The position numbers were made by a program, and so were the translations under genes. A DNA stretch of 11,447 bases from Candidatus Sysuimicrobiota bacterium. Its GTDB lineage: Bacteria > Sysuimicrobiota > Sysuimicrobiia > Sysuimicrobiales > Sysuimicrobiaceae. The notes under the pieces are model-generated. The model saw nothing but the letters and a program-made list of their open reading frames with translations, was not told where the DNA came from and searched no databases. The stretch lies in NCBI GenBank assembly GCA_040289515.1, contig PSLI01000050.1:1-11447 (forward strand), written 5' to 3'. This document shows positions 1 to 11,447 of the stretch, one piece after another (within the stretch, counting starts at the first letter, position 1; each line of letters begins with the position of its first letter).

Positions 1-2
1 CA

Positions 3-101
3 GCCCTGCATCGCTCCCTGGAGTTTTACAACACCGCCGGCCGCACCTCGGCTACCGCACCCGCGGCCGAACACCCGCCGATCCGTTCTGGGAAGCTGTA
101 G
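3..101 (+). CDS. possible 3' end of an upstream gene (partial, product unknown)
   Basis: Frame 3 is open from the window edge (ALHRSLEFYNTAGRTSATAPAAEHPPIRSGKL) to TAG at 99-101, with mostly G/C third positions. It is followed immediately by GGAGG (102-106) and ATG 114. No recognisable motif. Confidence 0.3.
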   Translation, partial: ALHRSLEFYNTAGRTSATAPAAEHPPIRSGKL

Positions 102-113
102 GGAGGCGTTACG

Positions 114-926
114 ATGACCCGGCTAATTATGCTACAGGTCTATACACCCTTACGATACGGGACGCCCAAGCCCTGCCCACCGTATGTTTGCAGCCGCGCA
201 CGTGGCGCGCTCCAGCCCTGCCCGCCCGTCGCCTCCCACGCCCCGATTGAGCTTCCAGCCAGACCCGGGCCTCACCCGCGATTCCTACAAGCCAGCGGCC
301 GAGCCGTGCTATTCGACCTTGATGGCACCCTTGTCGACTCCTTCCACCTTCTGACCGCCGCCTTTGCCCACGCACTCCGGCAGGTTTTAGGTCGGGAGCC
401 CACCGAGCAAGAACTCCATCGAAATTGGGGCGCCCCCCTTCGCCTCCGAGCCGCCGCCGTCGCCCCGGAACAGGCCGCCGAAGTGGTCCGCCTCTACGAG
501 CGCTACTACGAGCAGCACCAGGAAGCTATCAAACCATTCCCGGGCATCCCCGAGTTATTACGAGCCCTGCGGCACGACGGCTTCCGCCTCGCTGTCGTCA
601 CGTCCAAAAGCCGCCACCGCGCCCTCTTTACCTTGCAAGCCTGCCGTATCCTCCACCTGTTCGACCGCGTGATCTGCGAAGAAGACGCCCCGCGCCCGAA
701 GCCGGCACCTGAACCCGTCTATCAAGCGCTCCGATGCCTTCGAGCTCCCGTCCGCAAAACGTGGATGGTCGGGGACGCGCCCATCGACATTCTAGCTGCG
801 CGTGCCGCTGGAGTGCGCACCGTGGCCGCTCTCTGGGGGACACGTGAGCGCGACGCGGTGCTCGCCCTACGCCCCGATTATATTGCTTCCCTCCCCTCCG
901 ACGTGCTCAAAGCTGTCCGCGGATAG
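114..926 (+). CDS. HAD-superfamily (subfamily IA) hydrolase, PpaX/phosphoglycolate-phosphatase-like
   Basis: Motif I AVLFDLDGTLVDS, motif II VVTSK, motif III KPAPEP, motif IV MVGDAPIDILAARAAG, plus the typical ALWG...LRPDYI tail. GGAGG lies 7 nt before ATG 114. The first ~60 aa are Pro-rich and outside the domain, so the true start is uncertain. Confidence 0.88.
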   Translation: MTRLIMLQVYTPLRYGTPKPCPPYVCSRARGALQPCPPVASHAPIELPARPGPHPRFLQASGRAVLFDLDGTLVDSFHLLTAAFAHALRQVLGREPTEQELHRNWGAPLRLRAAAVAPEQAAEVVRLYERYYEQHQEAIKPFPGIPELLRALRHDGFRLAVVTSKSRHRALFTLQACRILHLFDRVICEEDAPRPKPAPEPVYQALRCLRAPVRKTWMVGDAPIDILAARAAGVRTVAALWGTRERDAVLALRPDYIASLPSDVLKAVRG

Positions 927-1960
927 ACCGCACATCGCACAATCCGAAATGAGACTTCCTCCCCTAATGCTGGCGCCTGCCCTACGCCAACTGTCCACAG
1001 GAGCCGCCCGCCGGGGACATCCCCAACACAGTCCACCCGATCCCCCCTATACACCCGCCGCACGACTCGTCCCCGCAGCTCCCCTGCCACGTCGCTGACC
1101 ACCCACTCCGGTCGCACGCACAGCCACACCGGCCCGCGCAGCGGTTCAGCCCACGGTACCTCGACCTGCTGTCCATCTCCCAAAACCACCTGCACGCGAC
1201 CTTCCTGCCAGGCCACCGCTTCCCCTTCCAAAAAACTTGCCCTCCCCACGAATCCCGCCACAAAAGGTGTTCGCGGCTTTTCGTACACCTCCTGCGGGCT
1301 CCCTATCTGCTCGATCTGCCCTTCTCGCATCACCGCCACGCGATCCGACATCGCCATTGCCTCCACCTGATCATGCGTAACGTACAGCACCGTAAAACCC
1401 AGCCGCCTCTGAAGCTCCGCAATCTCGTCCCGCAGCTCCTCCCTCAGTCGCGCATCAAGGTTACTCAGGGGCTCGTCCAGCAACAACACTGCCGGCTCCC
1501 CAACCAACGCCCGCGCCAGAGCTACCCGCTGCTGCTGTCCCCCCGACAGTTCGCCCGGATAACGATCCGCCACCTGCTGAAGACGTACTAGCTCCAGCGC
1601 TCGTCGTGTCCGTAGCTCAAGCTCCCTCCGTGTCACCCTCCTACACCGAAGCGGATAGGCGACGTTCTGAAACACAGTCATGTGCGGCCACACCGCGTAG
1701 CTCTGAAACACCATAGCCATTCCACGACGCTCAGGCGGCACCTGCCACTCGGGAGTGGACAGAACCCGTCCCTCAACAATAACGCGCCCTTCTGTCGGCC
1801 GCACAAACCCCGCAATTATGCGCAACGTCGTTGTCTTGCCGCACCCCGACGGCCCCAGAAGACTTACAAACTCACCATCGTCGACCGTTACGTCAAGTCC
1901 TCTAATCACCCACGCATCGTTATAGCGCTTGCCCAACCTCTCCACAACCACTCCCGCCAT
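878..1960 (-). CDS. ABC transporter ATP-binding protein (FbpC/AfuC/PotA-like, C-terminal TOBE-type region)
   Basis: Walker A GPSGCGKT, Q-loop VFQSYAVWPHMTV, signature LSGGQQQRVALARAL, Walker B LLLDEPLSNLD, H-loop VTHDQ. Starts 1 nt after the permease stop. Confidence 0.95.
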   Translation of the reverse strand: MAGVVVERLGKRYNDAWVIRGLDVTVDDGEFVSLLGPSGCGKTTTLRIIAGFVRPTEGRVIVEGRVLSTPEWQVPPERRGMAMVFQSYAVWPHMTVFQNVAYPLRCRRVTRRELELRTRRALELVRLQQVADRYPGELSGGQQQRVALARALVGEPAVLLLDEPLSNLDARLREELRDEIAELQRRLGFTVLYVTHDQVEAMAMSDRVAVMREGQIEQIGSPQEVYEKPRTPFVAGFVGRASFLEGEAVAWQEGRVQVVLGDGQQVEVPWAEPLRGPVWLCVRPEWVVSDVAGELRGRVVRRVYRGDRVDCVGDVPGGRLLWTVGVGQAPALGEEVSFRIVRCAVYPRTALSTSEGREAI

Positions 1961-1961
1961 C

Positions 1962-3698
1962 TCACGCCATCCACTCTTTCTTTGCTGTCTTCACCATCAG
2001 CACGTGTCCGCCTAGCAGCAGCACTGTTACAACGAACGACAGTGCCGCACTCAACGCGATCTTCCCTTCCTCATGCAACCCGTAAATTACCACGCCGATT
2101 GTCTCGTTTCCTACGGAATACAGCAGGACGGACAACGTGAGCTCCGCCACGGCGGGTATGAACACAAGGACCCATGCGGAGCGCACGCTTGGCCACATTA
2201 TCGGTACCACAACATCCACAACTGCCCGACCAGCACCCGCGCCTGCAATCCTCGCTGCCTCTTCCAGCGACGCGTGTACCTGCGCCAGCCCCGAAGACGC
2301 AGTGCGAAGCCCAATCGCCACAAAGCGCGTAACGTACGCTGCCAGCAGAATCCAAGCCGTATCGTAGAGGCGAATATTCACAACCGGAATCGGCCGCGCA
2401 TATGCCAGAATCAGCGCTACTGCCACCACGGTCCCCGGGACGGAGTAGGGAATTGCCAATGCACCCTCGAGCACTTGCGCCGCTCGCCACCGCGCGCGCT
2501 CCGATAGGTACGCTACCGCTACCGCCAACAGCACAACCAGCGTTGCAGCCCCTGCCGCTAGCATCAGGCTGTTGCGCAAGGCCCGCCCGACCTTCGGTAT
2601 TCCAAAAAGCACCGTCTGATAGTGCTCAACCGTCAGGTTTTCCGGACCTACCGGCACTCCGTACGCCCGGGTAAGCGACGTTAGCAACAAAGCCCCTAGC
2701 GGCAAAACCGTCGCAATTCCCACAACCGCGGCCACAAAAACCCCCGCCGCCCATCGCCAACGTCCCAGCTCGATACGCCCGCCCCCACCTCCCTGCCCAG
2801 TCACAACCGCGAAGCGACCACCTCCCCGCCCCACCAACCCTCGCTGCAAAACAAGGGCCAGCCCTGCCGGCGCCGCCAGCAGCACGGACAAGGCTGCAGC
2901 CGCCCGCAAATTGTCCGGCGTCCCGAAGCTCAGCACCGTCGCATAGATGCGTGTCGGCAGAACAAAATAACGAGCCGGGAATCCCAGTATCGCAGGAATC
3001 CCAAAATTGGCTAGTGACGACACCCACAGGAGCAGCGCCCCCGAACCAATCGCCGGTAAAACCAGCGGCACCACCACGTCGCGCATCACCTGCAAAGGCC
3101 GCGCGCCCGCCATCCGCGCTGCCTCCTCCAGCGCCGGATTCATGCGTTCGAGCGCCGCCCGAACCACTACATACGGGATCGGGTACCCGTACAGGGTCAG
3201 CACAAACACGATGCCAGCCGGGCCGTAAATTACCGCCAGCGGCGTCCCAAACCCTGACACCTGCATCCACAACCGGTTTAGATAGCCCACCGGGCTCAGC
3301 AAATACACCCATGCCATGGCACCGATGAAGGGCGGAATCATGTAGGGCAGCAGAAGCGCTGTGTGCCACGCACGCGCAGCTGGCAGGTCCGTCCGGCTCG
3401 TCAGCCACGCTAAGATCACGCCTAGAAACGTACCCGCAGCTGTAGCAGCCGTAGCCACCGCGACGCTATTCACAAACGCCTGCCGCACTGCGGCCTCCGA
3501 CAGCGCCCGAGCGTAGTGCCCAAGGCTCACACGCCCCTCCGCCACGAGCGAACTGCCCAACAACACCACGGATGGGTACACAATTAACCCGCTGATCACC
3601 CCCACAAAGATCCAACCCACAGCGCCCCCCGCCCGAACTGGCAGACCCGCCGCGTAACCGTCCCGCCCTGCCCCTCGCCACGTGACGAGCTCGTTCAT
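1962..3698 (-). CDS. ABC transporter permease with two fused TM domains (FbpB/AfuB/ThiP-like)
   Basis: 578 aa and highly hydrophobic. Two EAA loops (ALEEAARMAGARPLQVMRDVVVP and SLEEAARIAGAGAGRAVVDVVVP), plus PYMIPPFIGAMAW and NFGIPAILG segments typical of this family. Confidence 0.93.
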   Translation of the reverse strand: MNELVTWRGAGRDGYAAGLPVRAGGAVGWIFVGVISGLIVYPSVVLLGSSLVAEGRVSLGHYARALSEAAVRQAFVNSVAVATAATAAGTFLGVILAWLTSRTDLPAARAWHTALLLPYMIPPFIGAMAWVYLLSPVGYLNRLWMQVSGFGTPLAVIYGPAGIVFVLTLYGYPIPYVVVRAALERMNPALEEAARMAGARPLQVMRDVVVPLVLPAIGSGALLLWVSSLANFGIPAILGFPARYFVLPTRIYATVLSFGTPDNLRAAAALSVLLAAPAGLALVLQRGLVGRGGGRFAVVTGQGGGGGRIELGRWRWAAGVFVAAVVGIATVLPLGALLLTSLTRAYGVPVGPENLTVEHYQTVLFGIPKVGRALRNSLMLAAGAATLVVLLAVAVAYLSERARWRAAQVLEGALAIPYSVPGTVVAVALILAYARPIPVVNIRLYDTAWILLAAYVTRFVAIGLRTASSGLAQVHASLEEAARIAGAGAGRAVVDVVVPIMWPSVRSAWVLVFIPAVAELTLSVLLYSVGNETIGVVIYGLHEEGKIALSAALSFVVTVLLLGGHVLMVKTAKKEWMA

Positions 3699-3701
3699 CT
3701 T

Positions 3702-4712
3702 CTACTGCACTCCGAACAACTCGCTGAATGTCTTTCTGATCTCCTCTCGCCACTGGTCGATATGATCTAGGTTCGGGAAAATCACCTTCAATCGCTCCGC
3801 TTCAGGTACGCCTGCCGGGTACGGAATCCCCGGCAGCACCGGGATGTAGCTCCGCTGCGCGAACAGGCTCTGGGCCTCAGGTGTATACAAAAAGTCCACG
3901 AACGCCTCCGCCGCCGGAAGGTTCTGAGTTCCCTTCACAATCGCCACCGGCGTCGGCACCAACAGCGAACCCTCTTGGGGCCATATGTGGTCCACCGGCG
4001 ACCCACGTCCCTTGGCCGCACGAACAAAGAAGTCCACTACCTGCGCTATGCTAATCTCCCCGGATGCCAGCTTTTGCAGCACATCCCCATTGCTACGCAG
4101 CACCTGCGTTTCATTCTCTCGCAGCTTCCGATAGTAGGCCCAGCCGAACTCTCGCATGCTGACGAAGGTCCCCACGTGCGCGAGTGCAGCGCCGGACACA
4201 AACGGATTTGGAATCCCGACCCGACCTCTGTAACGCGGCAGGGTTAGGTCCCACCAACTGCTCGGCCGAAATCGAACATGATTTGTGTTAAAAGCGACTA
4301 CGTTAAAGATCAGGCGGACCTCGTGGTACCGATTTCCGTCATAGTGGTACCGGCCGGGCACCCGTCGCCCTGACGGAGGGGAGTAGGAAACCAGCAGGTC
4401 CCGGCGTGCTAGATCCCGCAAAAAAGCTATGTCTGCAAACCACAACACGTCCGCCTGGATACGCCCGGTCTGCATCTCCGCCTGAATCCTCGCCACCACC
4501 GGCCCAGACCCTGCGCGAAATACCCGCACGGTAACGTTCGGATACCGCCGGTTGAAAGCCTGGACGATTAAGTTGACATCGTCTTCCGACTCCGATGTAT
4601 ACAGGGTCACCGTCCCGCCGGGCCCCGGTGCCCCGAGGCCCGATCCGACCAGTACTGCGCTCAATACCGCTCCAGCCAACAAGCTCCACGGCCACCGGCC
4701 CACACGTGACAT
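3702..4712 (-). CDS. ABC transporter periplasmic substrate-binding protein (FbpA/AfuA/PhnS-like fold; ligand probably not Fe3+)
   Basis: Signal-peptide-like N-terminus with no lipobox Cys. Family motifs VTLYTS, RAGSGPVVARIQAE, ADVLW, PSSWWDL...YRG, PNPFVSG, WPQEG, AEAFVDFL. Start placed at ATG 4712 because GGAGGTG (4725-4719) is a properly spaced RBS; the ORF track's GTG 4721 lies inside that RBS. Confidence 0.92.
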   Translation of the reverse strand: MSRVGRWPWSLLAGAVLSAVLVGSGLGAPGPGGTVTLYTSESEDDVNLIVQAFNRRYPNVTVRVFRAGSGPVVARIQAEMQTGRIQADVLWFADIAFLRDLARRDLLVSYSPPSGRRVPGRYHYDGNRYHEVRLIFNVVAFNTNHVRFRPSSWWDLTLPRYRGRVGIPNPFVSGAALAHVGTFVSMREFGWAYYRKLRENETQVLRSNGDVLQKLASGEISIAQVVDFFVRAAKGRGSPVDHIWPQEGSLLVPTPVAIVKGTQNLPAAEAFVDFLYTPEAQSLFAQRSYIPVLPGIPYPAGVPEAERLKVIFPNLDHIDQWREEIRKTFSELFGVQ

Positions 4713-4733
4713 ATCCTTCACCTCCCCCGAATG

Positions 4734-5948
4734 TTAAAGTGGCCGCCCTTCAGCACATCCTCCTGCTCCAGCTACAACTTCCTGCCACAGCTCCTCAAAC
4801 CGCCCCTTGTTCCATCGCGCCAACTCTTCGCCCGGGCTCATAGAGAAACCCTCCAGGACCACACAACCTGAATAGTCCCCGAGCGCCCGCAGCGCACTCA
4901 CCAGGTCCCGTCGCCCCTGCCCGAGCGGGAGATGTAGCCGCGCCTCATCCGCATCGCTGAAGTGCACATGCACGACCGGATCCAGGCTCCGCACGAACGC
5001 CGCTTCGTTTTCACCCCAAGGAATGTGCGCCACATCCAGGGTGATGCCAACGTTGGAGCGCCCAACTGCCCGTACCAACGCATTCGCCTGTTCTGGATAG
5101 ACGACCAACTCCCCCTGCCGCGGCTCCATGTGTTCGATCGCGAGCTGCACCCCCAGCTGCATGGCGTGATCCGCGAGTTCCTGCAAGACCCCTACCAAGG
5201 TATTCCAGTAAACTGCCCCCTCGTCGTGCGGAACGGTTACGTGACCGGGGTGAAGGGCCACTACCCCCGCCCCCACCTGACTGGCGAGTTCCAGGGATTC
5301 ATGCAACTCTCGAACAGAGGCCTGCCGGATGGCCTCCAGCCGTGACGCCGGGTTGAGGTCCCAGCTGAAGGCATGCAGCGTCAGTACCAGCCCCAGCTCA
5401 TGAGCCGTTCTCCGGACCGCGCTCGGGTCGACTCCCTCCCGCCGCAGCGAAAACGCCCAAAGCTCCACCCCGTCGTATCCTAGCTCCTTGGCCCGCCGCA
5501 ACACGTCCAGGGTTTCCTGCGCCCAGAGAACCGGCGCGCTCAGCAGGAGCCGGAACGCACGACGTGCGGGCGGAGACTCTCGCGGCCCGACCCTCAAAGG
5601 AGTCGAGCGACGGCGGACCCCTGCCCCACGTAGGATGTCCAGCGTCGTCCGCAGCTCGGCCGCCACACGGAAAGGTTTGGTGACCACCCGTCCCGGGAAC
5701 GTGGTCAGAAAACGACCCGGGTAGTGCAGCGCTTCCCCGCCCAGTTCCAATGGCTTCGCCACCACGCGTCGTACCAGGCTGCCCACATATTCTTCCACGA
5801 ACTGGAGCGTATCTACGACCGTACCGCGTCCGCAAACAACACACGTGATCCGCGACTGTCCGCCTGCTTGCGGTGCCACCAGGTGCCAGGTAAGACGCCC
5901 ACAGCGCGCGCACTGCAGCTGTACCTCGTAACGCTCCGCCACACCCAT
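4734..5948 (-). CDS. Sugar-phosphate isomerase/epimerase (xylose-isomerase-like/AP_endonuc_2 TIM barrel) fused to an N-terminal zinc-ribbon domain
   Basis: The C-terminal ~270 aa carry GYDGVELW, LTLHA, ALHPG, LAIEHM, TLDVAH, HVHFSD, HLPLGQG and VVLEG, including the E/D/H/E metal ligands. The N-terminal ~105 aa carry CARC-x5-H-x13-CVVC. Start placed at ATG 5948, overlapping the E2 stop (TGATG); GTG 5951 and 5978 are alternatives. Confidence 0.85.
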   Translation of the reverse strand: MGVAERYEVQLQCARCGRLTWHLVAPQAGGQSRITCVVCGRGTVVDTLQFVEEYVGSLVRRVVAKPLELGGEALHYPGRFLTTFPGRVVTKPFRVAAELRTTLDILRGAGVRRRSTPLRVGPRESPPARRAFRLLLSAPVLWAQETLDVLRRAKELGYDGVELWAFSLRREGVDPSAVRRTAHELGLVLTLHAFSWDLNPASRLEAIRQASVRELHESLELASQVGAGVVALHPGHVTVPHDEGAVYWNTLVGVLQELADHAMQLGVQLAIEHMEPRQGELVVYPEQANALVRAVGRSNVGITLDVAHIPWGENEAAFVRSLDPVVHVHFSDADEARLHLPLGQGRRDLVSALRALGDYSGCVVLEGFSMSPGEELARWNKGRFEELWQEVVAGAGGCAEGRPL

Positions 5949-7015
5949 CACGATTCCTGCCCCACACGTTGCAACCACCGGTCCAAGCTCTCCAGAAACC
6001 TGGCTCCGTCCGCACCATCCGCCACCCGGTGGTCCAGCCCCAAGGTCACGTCACATACGGGGCGTACGGCCAAAGCATCCCCAACCGCCCACGGTCGGAG
6101 CCGCACCGCCCCAACCGACAGGATGGCGGTCTGCCCGGGCACCACCAGTGACGTGAATCGATCCACACCCAGCATGCCGAGGTTGGATACGGTAAACACC
6201 GCGTCGCGCACGTCCTCCAGGGTCAACCGATCCTCCCGGGCCCGCTGCACCAGGTTCCGTAGCTCAGCATCCAGCATCGAAAGCGTCTTTCGATCCGCGT
6301 CGCGAAGCACTACCAGCTGAAGCCCCTGCGGACTGTCAACTGCTACCCCTATGTGGATTCCTTCGTGCACGACTCCCTGCGGCGTCGTCCGAAGCCTCGG
6401 GTTCTCCCTTAGAGCTCGAGCCGTCGCCCACACCAGCGCTGCAGTGTATGACACTTCCCCTCGAGCTCGACTCGCGTGAGACACGTCCAGCGTCCGCGTC
6501 AGGTGTACCTGCGGAATCTCGCGGGCGCTCTCCACCATGCGCTCGGCCACCACCCGGCGCCGCCCCTCCGAAACTCCGCGCACGCGCCGCGCCTCCACTG
6601 CCGCCCGCACGTCCACCTCCGTAATCCTGCCTCCCGGTCCGCTCCCCTGCACCGTCGCCAGGTCGATCCCTTCCTCCCGGGCTAGCCGCCGCGCTGCCGG
6701 TGTGGCGGCGACCATACCGCCGCCGCCTTGCTCGGCGCCGGCGGACGTTGCCAAAACCTCTTCCTGCAACACCTCTCCCGGCTCCACAATGTAAGCCATC
6801 ACGCCCGTCACAGGGACTCTGTCACCCGGCCGCGCTCGGACGCCTGCCAAAATGCCGCTGGCAGGAGCCTCAACCTCCATGTTGACCTTGTCGGTCATCA
6901 CCTCCACCAGAGGCTCGCCCGCCTCGACCCATTCACCCTCCTCGCGCAACCAGCGAACTACGGTCGCCTCCTCCATGGTCATATCGAGCTTCGGGAGAAT
7001 CACAGGTCGAGACAT
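5948..7015 (-). CDS. Dihydrolipoamide acyltransferase (E2) of a 2-oxoacid/acetoin dehydrogenase-like complex
   Basis: One lipoyl domain (LPKLDMTMEEATVVRW...EVMTDKVNMEVEAP), a peripheral subunit-binding domain (ATPAARRLAREEGIDLATVQGSGPGGRITEVDV), and catalytic motifs TVSNLG and DHRVADG. ATG 7015 is preceded by GAGGG; 355 aa. Confidence 0.93.
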   Translation of the reverse strand: MSRPVILPKLDMTMEEATVVRWLREEGEWVEAGEPLVEVMTDKVNMEVEAPASGILAGVRARPGDRVPVTGVMAYIVEPGEVLQEEVLATSAGAEQGGGGMVAATPAARRLAREEGIDLATVQGSGPGGRITEVDVRAAVEARRVRGVSEGRRRVVAERMVESAREIPQVHLTRTLDVSHASRARGEVSYTAALVWATARALRENPRLRTTPQGVVHEGIHIGVAVDSPQGLQLVVLRDADRKTLSMLDAELRNLVQRAREDRLTLEDVRDAVFTVSNLGMLGVDRFTSLVVPGQTAILSVGAVRLRPWAVGDALAVRPVCDVTLGLDHRVADGADGARFLESLDRWLQRVGQES

Positions 7016-7022
7016 TCGTCCC

Positions 7023-8006
7023 TCACGCGACCAGTACCTGCCGAACGGCCTGGACGATGTCTTCTTCCTGCGGAACTGCCGCCCGTTCCAACCGCCGATT
7101 GTAGGGTATTGGGCACTCCGCCCCCCCAAGCCGTACCACCGGCGCCTGCAAATAGTACAGCGCATCACTCTCCGCGATTAGGGCAGCGATTTCGGCGCCC
7201 ACGCCCAACGTTTTCACGCCCTCGTACACAATCACCACCCGCCCCGTCTTTTGCACGGACTGAATGATCGTGTCCGTATCCAGGGGGCGCAAAGTGCGCG
7301 GGTCTACCACCTCGACGGAGATTCCCTCGTCCGCGAGTCGCTCTGCAGCCGCAAGCGCCCGCGGGACCATCCCAGACGTCGCCACCACTGTCACGTCTCG
7401 CCCCTCCCGCTTCACATCCCCGCGCCCCAGCGGTATCTCGTACGGCTCCTCCGGCACATCTCCCCGAGTCCGGTACAGTAGCTTGTGCTCCACGAAAATC
7501 ACCGGGTTGGGATCCCGGATGCTCGCCAAAAGCAAACCCTTAGCGTCTCTCGGTGTGCTGGGGCTGACCACCTTCAAGCCCGGGACATGCACAAACCAAG
7601 CCTCCAGGCTCTCCGAATGTTGAGCCGCGGCTCCTGTGCCAGCGCCCGCCGGAGTCCGCACCACCAAGGGTACCTGCGCCCGCCCGCCGAACATATACCG
7701 AATCTTCGCTGCCTGGAGGACCAGCTGCTCCATACAAAGAGTGATGAAGTCCATGAACTGGATCTCCAGCACCGGCCGCAACCCCGTGAGCGCCGCACCG
7801 ATGCTGCAGCCCGTGATCGCAGCTTCGGAAATGGGAGTGTCGCGCACCCGCTCAGGCCCGAAACGTTCCAGCAGTCCGTCTGTTACCCCGAATGCCCCCC
7901 CATACGTACCAATATCCTCCCCCAGGAGTATTACGGTAGGATCCTCCTCCATGGCCTGCCGCAGCGCCTCCCGGACGGCCTCTGCGTAGCTAAGGACCCT
8001 GCTCAT
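7023..8006 (-). CDS. ThDP-dependent dehydrogenase E1 beta subunit (PdhB/AcoB family)
   Basis: [81 protein letters not shown] overlap with the E1alpha stop. Confidence 0.96.
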
Positions 8007-8971
8007 GCGTACACCGCCTCCAGCAATGCAGCGGGATCCGGTTCGGGGCTTGCCTCAGCGAACCGCACGGCCTCTTCTACCTGCTCCCGTACCTCCCTCA
8101 CAAGCCGTTCGTACTCCCCTCCACCAAAAACCCCACTGCTCTCCAACAGTCGTCGCAGCTGCTCGATCGGATCCCTCGCCCGCCAGCGCTGCACCTCTTC
8201 CCTGCTCCGGTACCGCTGTCGGTCGCTTTTGCTGTGACCGCGATACCGATACGTTACACACTCGAGAAGGGTCGGCCCATGGCCCTGCCGCGCTCTCGCT
8301 ACAGCCTCCTGTGCAGCCGCAAAGACCGCCAGGACATCCATCCCGTCCACGGTCCGTCCGGGAATACCGTAAGCACACGCCCGATCCGCAATCCGCTCTA
8401 CCCGCATGGATTGCCGCACCGGCATAGACATGGCGTATTGATTGTTTTCACAGACGAACACCACCGGCAACTCCCAGATGCTGGCCAGGTTGAGAGACTC
8501 GTGAAAAGCGCCTTCGTTCGCGGCACCGTCCCCGAAAAAGGCTACGCAAACTTGCCCGGTCCGTCGTATCTGGATGGACAGTCCGACGCCGGCCGCGATG
8601 GGCAAACCGCCTGCCACGATACCATTTGCACCCAGGTTGCCACTCTCAAGATCCGCAATATGCATGCTTCCGCCCCTGCCGCGGCAGTAGCCGGTCTCCT
8701 TACCCAAAAACTCCGCCATCATGCGCCGCACGTCCGCTCCCTTCGCCAGGCAGTGGCCATGTCCGCGATGTGTGCTCAGAATGTAATCGTCCGGGCGCAA
8801 AGCCTCACATATCCCCACGGCCACCGCTTCCTGCCCGATGCTCAGGTGCATGGTCCCATGCACAAGCCCCGCACCGTAAAGCTCCTCCGCCTTTTCCTCA
8901 AACGCCCGGATGAGCAGCATGGTCCGCAGCATGGCCCGCAGCCGCTCAGCCGGCAGTGCCTCTACCATCAC
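8003..8971 (-). CDS. ThDP-dependent dehydrogenase E1 alpha subunit (PdhA/AcoA family)
   Basis: [27 protein letters not shown], ThDP-binding motif GDGAANEG...ENN, active-site loop [21 protein letters not shown]; start is GTG 8971 or ATG 8968. Confidence 0.96.
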
Positions 8972-9939
8972 CGTCCCACCTCCAGCTCGGACCTAGCCCT
9001 CTTCAGGATCGTTCGCGCCACAAGGTGATCCGTGACCAGCACGTCTATCAGTCCCCCGTGGAGAAGCCCCAGGATGGCTTCCGCCTTTTCCAGTCCGCCC
9101 GCCACGGCAACAACCGTTGGGATCCGCCGCAGATCCTCCAACTGCACGGCGACAATGCGCCGCTGTAGAAGATCGTCCACGGGCAGCCCGTCGAGCGTGT
9201 ACGGGCGTGTGCACACATCCCCTACGGCTCCCCGTTGCCGCAACCCGGCCAGCTCCTGCGCGGAAAAATAGCCACTTTGCACCAGCGTGGAGGAGGGGAC
9301 GAGTGCTCCCACTCCCACCAGCGCTACCTGGGCACGCCGCGCCAAGTCCAGAACACGTCGGATGCCGGGATCCGAGTACAACGCCTCCTGCACCTCGGGG
9401 CTCGCGACGACTGCGGGAGCGTGCAGGAAGTGGGCCCGCCCCTGGTGGACCTGCGCAAGCCGGCGGGCCAAGTCATTGGCGTGCACACCTGGCGCCACTT
9501 GACCTACCCCACCTACCAGGGGCACGGTCGTGGTGCGTAGCGCTCGGTGTCGAACGTGCTGGACCACCTCGTTCAGCGTGGTGCCCCAGGAAATCCCCAC
9601 CACTTCCCCACCCTTGAGGCAGCGATCCAAGTACCGTGCCCCCGCCTGCCCGAGCGCCCGCCGCGTCAAGCTCGGAGACTCGCTGTGGCCAGTGACTACA
9701 ATGGCCTCCCGCAGCCTAAACCGCTCCTCCAGCTCCCACGCAAGCTCGTGATGGGATCCCTCCGGGGGGTTGACCTCGATCCGAACGATGCCCTCCGTCC
9801 GCGCCCGCTGGAGCAGACGCGATACCGTCGGACGTGAAAGCCCGAGCCGCTCCGCGATCTCCTGTTGCGTAAGGTCCCGCAGGTAGTACAGGTCTGCGAG
9901 CCTCGCCATCAGCTGCCGGTCGTCCTCCCTCGGCGTCAC
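8968..9939 (-). CDS. SorC/DeoR(Bacillus)/LsrR-family sugar-binding transcriptional regulator
   Basis: N-terminal [39 protein letters not shown]. Sugar-binding domain with [40 protein letters not shown] and DVLVTD. GGAG RBS and GTGA overlap with the upstream stop. Confidence 0.95.
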
Positions 9940-11222
9940 ACCAGAACTCCAGAAAGTACGAGTACGTCCTGCAACCGCCTGAGCTGAACCACTATGCTCT
10001 CCTCGTTCAGCTGCACGTCGTCGTAGGTCAGCACTTCTCCCTTGCGGATTTCTCTTCGAGTCCGCGCACCGCTCACGATCCCTATCGGGACCGCTCCTGC
10101 GGCACGTGCTCGCTCCGCTTCATCTGCCAGCCCGTACACGGTCTCCCCCCCGATTCCGTCCAGCTCTTCTCCCGAGGCCAGGTCGCGCTTAGCGACAGCC
10201 ACGCACTCCACAAGGGGCGCACCCTGTGCCTGCATGGTCACCTCACCGTCGAGAACGGCCCGCGCGACCGACAGGGGCACTTCCAGATTGGCCAGGTGGA
10301 ACGGCCGGTACAAGGCGTAATACGGCCCCGAGCCCATCCGCAGGTACTCCAGGTCCCGACGGATGCTCTCGTCATCCGCCCGGACGACCACGAACACCCC
10401 CGGCGCTACATTTCCGATGGCATAGTCCACTACGCCCCGGCGGGTCAAAATTCCACCGTTCGCCTCCGGCACGAAGACCCGTACCAGCTCGTCCCGGCTC
10501 ACCACCGGGCCGTGCATGCCGGCGCAGTCCACCGTAAGGCCCGTCGCGTTTCCCAGCGCAGCCATTTCCATCATGGTCTTGGTGCCATCCACGAAAGCTG
10601 CGAGCATACGAGGGCTCATCCCCCATCGGGCCGCCTCCGAGGACACGGTCGCCGGCGTCGCGTCGCGATCCAGACGGTTGTTCTTCCCTTTCCCGGCGCA
10701 AACCACTTCCAACCCCATCGCCCGCGTGAAGTCTACCATTTCGCACAGGACCGCGGGCTCGTCCCCCAGCCCGACCGTGTACGCCGTCTCCGCGGCTCGA
10801 AACAGGTAAGCTAGGATCGGTCCCACGGTGGCGTCCAACTCGACGTTCATCGTTACGAGCGTCTTGCGTTCCCGCAACGTCAACAGCGCGATCCGGCACC
10901 CGCCCTCGGGGTCACCCGTGGCCTCCACAACCGCCTGCGCCGCGCTCACGACCACCGAAGGCTCCGAAGCCAGCGCCACTCTCCCGTCCTCCACCACTCT
11001 CCAGGCCTCATCCGTGCTCTGTACAAACTCTCCCACTAATCCCGTAGCGTTTACCGCTTCCCAGGCTCGCTGTGGCACCCGGTCGCAAACCGCGACCACT
11101 CGCACCCCCGGCAGACGCGTCAGCTGTCTAATCACACCACTTCCCATCTGGCCGGCCCCCACCACCGCCACTCGAATCGGCCGGCCCTGCCGATCCAGCG
11201 CACGCAACCGGCTGAGAATCAT
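9936..11222 (-). CDS. NAD(P)-dependent oxidoreductase with C-terminal SAF domain (COG4091, 'predicted homoserine dehydrogenase'-like; function unknown)
   Basis: Rossmann motif VAVVGAGQMG; NVELDATVGP, GDEP, AGKGKNN, FVDGTKTMMEMAALGNATGL and YRPFHL segments; SAF-type C-terminus VAVAKRDL..GEELDGIGG...PIG...IRKGEVLTYDDV. GGAAGG lies ~10 nt upstream of the ATG. Confidence 0.88.
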   Translation of the reverse strand: MILSRLRALDRQGRPIRVAVVGAGQMGSGVIRQLTRLPGVRVVAVCDRVPQRAWEAVNATGLVGEFVQSTDEAWRVVEDGRVALASEPSVVVSAAQAVVEATGDPEGGCRIALLTLRERKTLVTMNVELDATVGPILAYLFRAAETAYTVGLGDEPAVLCEMVDFTRAMGLEVVCAGKGKNNRLDRDATPATVSSEAARWGMSPRMLAAFVDGTKTMMEMAALGNATGLTVDCAGMHGPVVSRDELVRVFVPEANGGILTRRGVVDYAIGNVAPGVFVVVRADDESIRRDLEYLRMGSGPYYALYRPFHLANLEVPLSVARAVLDGEVTMQAQGAPLVECVAVAKRDLASGEELDGIGGETVYGLADEAERARAAGAVPIGIVSGARTRREIRKGEVLTYDDVQLNEESIVVQLRRLQDVLVLSGVLV

Positions 11223-11255
11223 ACTCGCAGACCTTCCCGGCTGTTCTTGTCCGTC

Positions 11256-11291
11256 ATGTTGAACATTTGTTCAGCGCTGAAATAATGTTGC
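11256..11291. promoter_or_regulatory. Probable operator of the operon's SorC/DeoR-family repressor (tandem palindromic boxes)
   Basis: Perfect inverted repeat TGAACA-TT-TGTTCA at 11260-11273 and a degenerate copy TGAAAT-AA-TGTTGC at 11278-11291. This is an AT-rich island in a GC-rich window, beginning ~38 bp upstream of the first gene. Assignment to this regulator is inference. Confidence 0.65.
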
Positions 11292-11352
11292 TTCGCGAGT
11301 AGGTTCATGGGTGCTGTCACGGAACGCAAGGGGATCACATGTTCGCCTTAAC

Positions 11353-11447
11353 TGGACTTGGCCCGGTTTCGTGAAGCAGGCGGAGCGGGACGCGGGGCTG
11401 CGTAGCGACGGGCTGACCACGGCGGAGCGGGAGGAGCTGCGGCGGGA
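11353..11447 (+). mobile_element. IS3-family insertion sequence remnant (putative left IR joined to a mid-orfA fragment; runs off the window)
   Basis: 11371-11447 reads VKQAERDAGLRSDGLTTAEREELRR, matching the W-V-x-Q-A-E-x-D-x-G...LTT-x-EREEL-x-x segment of IS3/IS51-group OrfA. It is preceded by TGGACTTGGCCCGGTTTCGTG, which resembles TG-starting IS51-group terminal repeats. The OrfA HTH is missing, and base skew flips to G-rich here. Confidence 0.7.

Follow-up and report, generated by a model that had tools for sequence, protein, structure and literature searches.

The window analysed here, a stretch of 11,447 nucleotides, corresponds to the entire contig PSLI01000050.1 (C17) of the Candidatus Sysuimicrobiota assembly GCA_040289515.1, a genome of 1.99 Mb and 96.7% completeness (for host background, see the available text of PMC11604079). 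It contains nine intact open reading frames (ORFs), all of them on the minus strand and spanning positions 11222-878, which encode an ATP-binding cassette (ABC) importer, a type II reductoisomerase (DXR-II) of DXP (1-deoxy-D-xylulose 5-phosphate), a SorC-family repressor, the E1 and E2 components of a thiamine diphosphate (ThDP)-dependent dehydrogenase and a triose-phosphate isomerase (TIM) barrel enzyme. This operon is predicted to take up and degrade phosphorylated intermediates of the MEP (2-C-methyl-D-erythritol 4-phosphate) pathway. Its features are detailed in Table 1, in which MEcPP stands for 2-C-methyl-D-erythritol 2,4-cyclodiphosphate and HAD for haloacid dehalogenase.

Table 1. Features of the window, in operon order, followed by the operator and the convergent gene.
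Feature	Position	Strand	Basis
DXR-II (DRL), DXP/MEP reductoisomerase type II, 428 aa, NAD-type acidic residue D47	9936..11222	-	PF21135 E 9e-67; 3UPL/3UPY E 8e-101
SorC/DeoR-family repressor, 323 aa	8968..9939	-	PF04198 E 3e-71 and helix-turn-helix (HTH)
E1alpha of dedicated ThDP dehydrogenase, predicted DXP cleavage; motifs HGT (38-40) and GHSKSD (245-250)	8003..8971	-	PF00676
E1beta, 327 aa	7023..8006	-	PF02779 and PF02780
E2 acyltransferase, 355 aa; lipoyl lysine (TDK), E3-binding domain, catalytic DHR motif	5948..7015	-	domain and motif reading
Zinc ribbon (CxxC..CxxC) and helical domain, N-terminal fusion to TIM barrel	5546..5948	-	sequence motif, structure model
AP-endonuclease-2-family TIM barrel; predicted MEcPP ring-opening phosphohydrolase	4734..5546	-	PF01261 E 2e-41
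Solute-binding protein of the AfuA/2-aminoethylphosphonate (2-AEP)/FbpA group; predicted binder of a phosphorylated polyol, likely MEcPP	3702..4712	-	PDB matches 8X1A, 4R72, 6WCE
Fused two-domain ABC permease, 578 aa	1962..3698	-	PF00528 twice; best NCBIfam PhnU2, under cut-off
ABC ATPase with TOBE domain, 360 aa	878..1960	-	domain search
Palindromic operator TGAACA-NN-TGTTCA, 37 nt upstream of first gene	11260..11273		putative SorC-type repressor site
Convergent PpaX-like HAD phosphatase with DLDGT at nt 315; its true start is probably close to 300	114..926	+	PF13419 E 3e-41

Consecutive genes overlap (GTGA 9936-9939, GTGA 8968-8971, ATGA 8003-8006 and TGATG 5946-5950) or are separated by gaps of 7 nt between E1beta and E2 (E2 start at 7015), 21 nt between the TIM barrel and the binding protein (start at 4712), 3 nt and 1 nt; all junctions were re-read directly and agree with the first-pass annotation, which had described nine co-oriented genes joined in this way. 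The Pfam families of the operon were PF21135 (DRL_cat) with SAF, SorC-type Sugar-bind with HTH, E1_dh, Transket_pyr/C, lipoyl with E3-binding and acyltransferase domains, AP_endonuc_2, and a binding protein, permease and ATPase of the Fe3+/2-AEP/AfuA group. As that annotation had stated, no kinase, aldolase or transketolase was found among the ten window proteins scanned. Three elements were added to its list: the convergent HAD phosphatase, the zinc ribbon fused to the TIM barrel and the operator palindrome. The complete order DXR-II, SorC, E1alpha, E1beta, E2, TIM barrel and binding protein recurs in six other loci, and the arrangement is therefore beyond chance.

The first gene had been taken for a COG4091 oxidoreductase. 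Its product is no generic dehydrogenase, and PF21135, the structures 3UPL and 3UPY (its sole PDB matches) and its residues identify it as DXR-II. The DRL_cat domain is accompanied by an N-terminal Rossmann domain and a C-terminal SAF domain, the layout of DXR-II. Fourteen of the 15 diagnostic positions checked are identical, the exception being Y322, which is replaced by Phe; the residues G121, Y161, E174, F178, K191, K193, T229, H250 and R320, named in the available text of PMC3847144, are all retained. In window numbering, the discriminating residues are G108, T216, H237, K178, K180 and R306 (Gly121, Thr229, His250, Lys191, Lys193 and Arg320, respectively). No variation occurs at D167, E168, K191, K193, K228, T229 or E232 across 81 related loci; for D167, E168, K228, E232 and H323 the roles are presumed. 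The assignment rests on these residues together with the PDB match. Since the protein is DXR-II, the substrate family should be MEP/DXP and the product acetyl-coenzyme A (acetyl-CoA), in place of the (hydroxy)acyl-CoA expected by the first-pass annotation. At the end of the second Rossmann strand (position 47) Asp or Glu is present in all 102 covering loci, where 3UPL has Ala-Arg-Arg. An acidic residue at this position goes with a preference for NAD rather than NADP, and by this rule NAD is the likely cofactor, which would fit the oxidation of MEP.

DXR-II was described as an alternative DXP-to-MEP reductoisomerase, separated by its residues from the related groups DLO1 and DLO2; 11 members of the clade make MEP, some genomes carrying it have no other MEP gene or only the mevalonate pathway, and its in vitro activity is lower than that of DXR-I (available text of PMC3847144). 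The same source handles the family as biosynthetic, and the words "catabol" and "sorbitol" are absent from its available text. According to the accessible part of a 2026 review, no pattern has yet been found in the distribution of DXR-II (PMC13001223). A housekeeping role was ruled out for the window protein, because the genome already has DXR-I. The PF21135 matches within the family could not all be accepted as orthologues, as seven of the nine others are DLO-like paralogues of 37-45% identity in other contexts; in six loci (L020-L025) the paralogues have Ala121 plus Ser or Leu at 229, the pattern described for DLO2/DLO1. In L020-L024 and L026, from the same genus, the neighbours of a DLO2-like paralogue are a creatininase-like gene and an ABC transporter for peptides.

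The motif GHS[KR]SD was found in 62 of 62 E1alpha proteins from DXR-II/TIM loci and differs in the six comparison E1alpha, with GHFEGD in the acetoin-type proteins linked to a sigma-54 activator and GHMLAY in an annotated PdhA. The window E1alpha has HGTMHL and GHSKSD where PdhA has its active-site loop motifs (GF.HL and, in the human protein, GHSMSD). Neither GHFEGD nor a sigma-54 activator context, the marks of AcoA as taken from two Enterococcus loci whose aco identity is itself presumed, was found for it. The basic residue beside the catalytic His of GHS[KR]SD is a candidate phosphate contact. The genome carries three further E1 sets, and the E3 gene lies outside the operon on contig C8 (81276-82661). 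As a reverse test, 730 plasmid records were searched with E1alpha; of its 35 best matches, 31 lie no more than 10 kb from a listed DXR-II match (by accession matching, the DXR-II side being the best 40 of 112 plasmid matches); among the other four, one of those checked adjoins the oxidoreductase and another does not. No claim of monophyly was based on the E1alpha tree, a quick one containing paralogues on long branches. AcoAB cleaves a methyl-ketol to acetyl-lipoamide and an aldehyde. DXP is a methyl-ketol like acetoin, and therefore cleavage of the AcoAB type would give acetyl-CoA and glyceraldehyde 3-phosphate (GAP). In ten related loci E1 is intact and E2 is either missing or shortened to a separate lipoyl domain of some 85 aa, which possibly acts as a shuttle to a housekeeping E2.

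The model of the TIM barrel is confident (predicted local distance difference test, pLDDT, 90.5), and the nearest structure is the uncharacterised MJ1311 (3WQO; Z 31.0, root-mean-square deviation 2.2 over 257 residues, 24% identity). The residues H192, H233, E272, D305, H308, H329, H339 and E366 are invariant in 77 sequences. In comparison with the ketose 3-epimerases DPE, DTE and UlaE, which have a single-metal Glu/Asp/His/Glu site and a substrate Arg, the four metal residues are kept, and H192, H233 and H339 are replaced in the aligned epimerases; the best NCBIfam matches are epimerases, far under the cut-off (50 vs 300 bits). The endonuclease IV of the same genome has histidines aligned with H233 and H339, and with H192 by motif alone, in a weak alignment (probability 29%) read with the known list of endonuclease IV metal ligands. 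The protein is not endonuclease IV itself, with 26 vs 130 bits for TIGR00587 and the true Nfo on contig C14. The first-pass view of an epimerase or isomerase gave way here, as the extra invariant histidines suggest a multi-metal phosphohydrolase, which the barrel looks more like than an epimerase. CbiR is a member of the AP endonuclease 2 superfamily that hydrolyses small-molecule phosphodiesters (available text of PMC7733943). Within the phylum, the barrel is present in 19 of 21 genomes with DXR-II and in 5 of 52 without it (matches of at least 317 bits). A plasmid search gave at most 33% identity in all of the 15 matches listed, and an Atlas search only generic AP_endonuc_2 clusters and no structure. 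A sister TIM-ABC clade of seven loci (R/H196, G332), with RpiR, GH4 and PfkB neighbours, suggests a second uncharacterised sugar-phosphate system.

The region of the fused zinc ribbon was modelled as a beta-ribbon with two long helices. It had no Pfam match, and the top Atlas match, a "putative Bh protein" (0.87), is a mere lead. Stand-alone homologues were found in DXR-II operons with a phosphotransferase system (PTS), in a cluster of 16 loci.

The top PDB matches of the binding protein were 8X1A, AfuA (4R72) and a pyridoxal-5-phosphate binder (6WCE). R66, S/T69 and S173 are present in 47 of 47 sequences, and D227 and R322 in 46. In AfuA, His205, Asp206 and Glu229 contact the sugar ring and Ser37 and Thr150 the phosphate (available text of PMC4546632). 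Mapped by hand from the alignment, the equivalents of His205 and Glu229 are hydrophobic and that of Thr150 is mostly Ala; judging by these residues, the window protein appears to be no binder of glucose-6-phosphate. No PTS was found elsewhere in the genome with four locus-derived query sets. With neither a kinase nor a PTS, the imported compound should already bear a phosphate.

The repressor combines HTH and PF04198 with a palindromic operator, as in the SorC/DeoR family. In the whole 1.99 Mb genome no other site fits the palindrome with one mismatch or fewer. When up to two mismatches are allowed, 12 of 16 related loci have a match in the 150 nt upstream of DXR-II, compared with 3 of 1753 control windows. 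Within the window alone it is weak, since 27 of 200 shuffles give a site with at most two mismatches. It is likely the binding site of the SorC-type repressor. A sigma-70-like site at 11259-11286 (+), the only match of the promoter scan, overlaps the operator and is directed away from the operon.

The HAD gene overlaps the 3' end of the ATPase gene, and its product is a candidate for removal of a 2-phosphate. A metagenome scan with the TIM barrel yielded 61 loci, 59 of which fall into 44 groups at 90% identity. The binding protein was found in 34 of these groups, DXR-II in 15 and a phosphatase of any kind in 25, belonging to unrelated families (HAD in 13, mostly convergent; PHP in 11; SurE in 7). 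The PHP proteins resemble, under cut-off, bisphosphate phosphatases and a cyclic-phosphate diphosphodiesterase. MEcPP is the substrate of IspG, and in five loci (three groups) the gene immediately upstream of the one for the TIM barrel encodes the barrel of IspG, with the FeS half convergent and downstream of the module in L163 and L165. W196 and D332 of the window protein recur in the IspG-linked TIM barrels but not in the sister clade. IspG is split in L165 (9060-9893 +; 17435-18568 -), L163 and L164, where the TIM-ABC module lies between a gene for the barrel alone and a gene for a degenerate barrel with the FeS part. Genes similar to RpiB and glycerol-1-phosphate dehydrogenase adjoin in 5 and 4 of the 44 groups, respectively, and DUF47/PhoU-like genes are near the module in 4. 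In L146-L162 the TIM barrel is accompanied by SurE, the ABC system and PHP, and the locus has no DXR-II; this module looks like one for scavenging phosphate from the same compound.

DXR-II loci in named genomes were examined as the best 80 of 546 confirmed matches; related loci are kin and hence not independent, and the genomes are incomplete. The phyla represented are Chloroflexota, Spirochaetota, Bacillota, Actinomycetota and Sysuimicrobiota, with loci of Pseudomonadota on plasmids. Among these best 80, DXR-II is adjoined by E1 in 47, a glucitol-type PTS in 55, SorC in 48, IspD in 12 and a window-type ABC binding protein in 6; in the 39 loci of at least 15 kb, E1 occurs in 25 and a PTS or window-type ABC system in 33. 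The glucitol PTS is reportedly the entry route of methylerythritol in Salmonella. The neighbourhood check proposed with the first-pass annotation thus revealed recurrent co-occurrence, with entry and cleavage modules exchanged in other taxa as it had anticipated: the ABC entry is replaced by the PTS, by an ABC system with a kinase (Rhizobium) or by a major facilitator superfamily transporter with an FGGY kinase (Priestia), and E1/E2 by aldolase and transketolase in Ligilactobacillus. A Ligilactobacillus salivarius plasmid (L175) carries DXR-II, the glucitol PTS, a fructose-6-phosphate aldolase and transketolase, and no E1/E2. Rhizobial loci have their own E3, plus aldolase or lipoyl synthase, and among the neighbours of DXR-II in some loci are genes for a class II aldolase, a PTS of the galactitol type and a zinc dehydrogenase. 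Both entry routes stand in one operon in L110 and L068, with the glucitol PTS upstream of DXR-II and the TIM-ABC arm downstream. Most loci of the PTS type have SrlE as two separate ORFs (many of L040-L105; 89 ORFs in 51 loci).

The MEP pathway was surveyed in 73 genomes of the phylum of at least 85% completeness, two of them flagged as unpublished (G029 and G024). DXR-I was matched in 70 of the 73, and DXS exceeded the cut-off in 2. The genome studied carries DXR-I (C38:28148-29275), IspD, IspF and IspG, and HMG-CoA reductase was not found in it. The MEP pathway of the phylum seems to draw its DXP from a source other than DXS. The operon E1 as a phylum-wide substitute for DXS was ruled out, as only 20 of the 73 genomes have E1alpha at 70% identity or more; DXR-II is missing in 52 and the operon-type E1alpha in 53. 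Under stress MEcPP builds up, and both plants and bacteria export it (available texts of PMC11192765 and PMC3487848).

The GC content of the window contig is 0.637, compared with about 0.70 in most contigs, and GC at third codon positions over 1-11447 is 0.67-0.77, compared with 0.88-0.93 for two core genes. The nearest orthologues of the window genes belong to the same family, with 68-87% identity. The low values point to horizontal acquisition, mis-binning being the less likely option; contigs from sequencing runs cover the stretch in pieces.

Gene identities, residues, neighbourhoods and conservation of the operator are observations; the substrates and the direction of flux that follow are inferred. 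The ABC, TIM barrel and phosphatase entry without a PTS implies that the substrate is already phosphorylated, and MEcPP is proposed because a metal hydrolase and a phosphatase would be needed to reach MEP and because IspG would use it directly. MEcPP would enter via the ABC transporter and the TIM barrel would open its ring to the 2,4-bisphosphate, whose 2-phosphate would be removed by the HAD phosphatase, or by the TIM barrel itself, to give MEP. DXR-II, acting in reverse, would oxidise MEP with NAD+ to DXP, and E1/E2/E3 would convert DXP, CoA and NAD+ into acetyl-CoA and GAP: attack of ThDP at C2 of DXP would free GAP, the two-carbon unit would pass to the lipoyl arm, and E3 would be supplied in trans from contig C8. 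The SorC repressor may derepress the operon once a phosphorylated intermediate appears. MEP is also a branch point, and the same import could feed isoprenoid synthesis in a genome without DXS. The core of this scheme, from MEP through DXP to acetyl-CoA and GAP, is regarded as probable, and the whole route with MEcPP as the imported compound is given an even chance. Of the earlier proposal, a conserved and apparently undescribed phosphorylated-polyol route ending in alpha-ketol cleavage by E1/E2 was maintained, and the gene identities of the COG4091 protein and the TIM barrel were revised.

Several points weigh against the route from MEcPP to acetyl-CoA. Fold searches do not tell a hydrolase from an epimerase; they place ketose epimerases (Z 27.7-29.8) above endonuclease IV (Z 24.4-24.8), and the DRH aspartate of the latter is missing in the TIM barrel. 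The 27-row TIM group is supported by an SH-like approximate likelihood ratio test (SH-aLRT) value of 90 only, in a quick tree; the sister TIM-ABC clade adjoins a GH4 glycosidase and a PfkB kinase, and hence the module can serve other sugars; and the IspG link consists of three groups forming one clade. The equilibrium of DXR lies towards MEP. The HAD gene is convergent, hence outside the operon transcript, and the best 80 of 546 DXR-II loci lean towards relatives. E1alpha falls marginally above the equivalog cut-off of pyruvate dehydrogenase (TIGR03182, 406.3 vs 393.85 bits), and operon-type E1alpha was not detected with the window query in four genomes with DXR-II. Among 26 TIM-module loci, 10 have a catalytic E2, 4 a lipoyl domain only, 5 E1 without E2 and 7 no E1/E2 in place. 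Furthermore, the wild-type strains tested released no pathway intermediates (available text of PMC3487848).

The scarcity of DXS beside nearly universal DXR-I in the phylum would also suit a mainly anabolic use of the same import and enzymes, in which MEcPP or MEP feeds isoprenoids, reverse DXR-II gives DXP for cofactors in genomes without DXS, and E1/E2 serves as optional overflow or else forms DXP from GAP and either pyruvate or acetyl-CoA. The presence of IspD, IspF and IspG and the failure to find HMG-CoA reductase in the genome studied, the loss of E2 or E1 in 16 of the 26 TIM-module loci, the 12 adjoining IspD genes and the formation of DXP by a mutant AceE of Escherichia coli (available text of PMC3424233) agree with it. 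On the other hand, the many genomes without DXR-II or operon-type E1alpha exclude a general bypass of DXS, the repressor, the importer and the NAD-type site fit catabolism, E1/E2 is complete in the window, and the rhizobial copies have their own E3 with aldolase or lipoyl synthase. As an account of the operon such scavenging is unlikely; it is a serious rival nonetheless, and may be the main use where E1/E2 has decayed. It is quite unlikely that, the core being correct, the compound taken up by the ABC system is a linear phosphate, be it MEP, DXP, 1-deoxy-ribulose 5-phosphate or a methylthreitol phosphate, and the TIM barrel an epimerase or isomerase that funnels a stereoisomer to DXP. The epimerase matches of NCBIfam, though far under cut-off, the ketose 3-epimerases that fill the fold-search lists and the RpiB- and glycerol-1-phosphate dehydrogenase-like neighbours would be expected from it, but three invariant histidines are absent from epimerases, the phosphatases (25 of 44 groups) and the link with IspG are left unexplained, and the TIM module also occurs with SurE/PHP and no DXR-II.

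The lower in vitro activity of DXR-II relative to DXR-I (available text of PMC3847144) might also mean that this activity is a side reaction and the enzyme a plain dehydrogenase, or one acting on another branched sugar, with another branched or 1-deoxy polyol phosphate as substrate. The genes for a zinc dehydrogenase, a class II aldolase and a galactitol-type PTS found nearby in some loci and the aldolase and transketolase in place of E1/E2 in Ligilactobacillus point the same way; with the reported substrate-anchoring residues invariant, and IspD (12 of the best 80 loci) and IspG indicating compounds of the MEP pathway, such a substrate is improbable. That E1/E2 is an ordinary pyruvate or acetoin dehydrogenase placed beside an uptake system by chance would agree with the TIGR03182 and PRK09212 cut-offs, both of which are passed by the operon E1 genes, but is hardly credible given the three other E1 sets of the genome, the differing acetoin-type GHFEGD and PdhA GHMLAY motifs and the 31 of 35 top plasmid E1alpha matches that adjoin DXR-II.

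In a literature search with most subscription journals outside its coverage, neither a catabolic role for DXR-II nor an importer or hydrolase of MEcPP came up, nor did any described pathway with this combination, as the first-pass annotation had supposed. Tentatively, and at somewhat less than an even chance, the operon could be the first dedicated system for uptake and breakdown of MEcPP, comprising an importer, a new family of cyclic-diphosphate hydrolases, a reductoisomerase working in reverse with NAD and a dehydrogenase complex for DXP; DXR-II would then be catabolic in origin and later borrowed for biosynthesis, and the DXS-less phylum would live partly off MEP intermediates shed by its neighbours. 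If true, the scattered "redundant" DXR-II among bacteria would be explained and two new enzyme activities, MEcPP hydrolase and DXP dehydrogenase, would be added. The exit of MEcPP from cells and its entry into them is an open question in the available text of a 2024 review (PMC11192765); the ABC system is a concrete candidate for its importer, with the binding protein and the repressor as candidates for its sensors. Efflux of MEcPP is a drain on engineered isoprenoid strains (available text of PMC3487848), and an importer could recover the MEcPP lost in this way.

In comparison with known systems, the entry arm formed by the AfuA-like importer and the TIM barrel is the new part, and the component families and the logic of import, isomerisation and cleavage are known. 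With AfuABC (4R72; available text of PMC4546632) the operon shares the class of binding protein, fused permease and ATPase; the Ser37 equivalent is S/T in 47 of 47 sequences and Asp206 likely corresponds to D227, whereas the window binding protein has two near-invariant arginines and no equivalents of His205 and Glu229. The TIM barrel with His/Asp/Glu metal ligands is shared with endonuclease IV, CbiR and MJ1311, but the window barrel forms its own subfamily, with an SWDLN motif, a fused zinc ribbon and no DRH aspartate, and scores 44 bits against the CbiR cut-off of 105. The DXR-II protein has the domain layout and named residues of 3UPL/3UPY and differs from them in the acidic cofactor-site residue, and from published DXR-II in that its gene belongs to a repressor-controlled uptake operon of a genome bearing DXR-I. 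The E1alpha/E1beta/E2 architecture and the predicted methyl-ketol cleavage are those of the acetoin dehydrogenase AcoABC(L), with GHSKSD/HGT for GHFEGD/PGF, a SorC repressor for the sigma-54 activator and no E3 in the operon. Finally, the core of DXR-II, E1/E2 and SorC and the zinc-ribbon protein are common to the DXR-II operons with a glucitol PTS (srlAEB-gutM), from which the window differs in its entry by an ABC importer, TIM barrel and phosphatase in place of the PTS.

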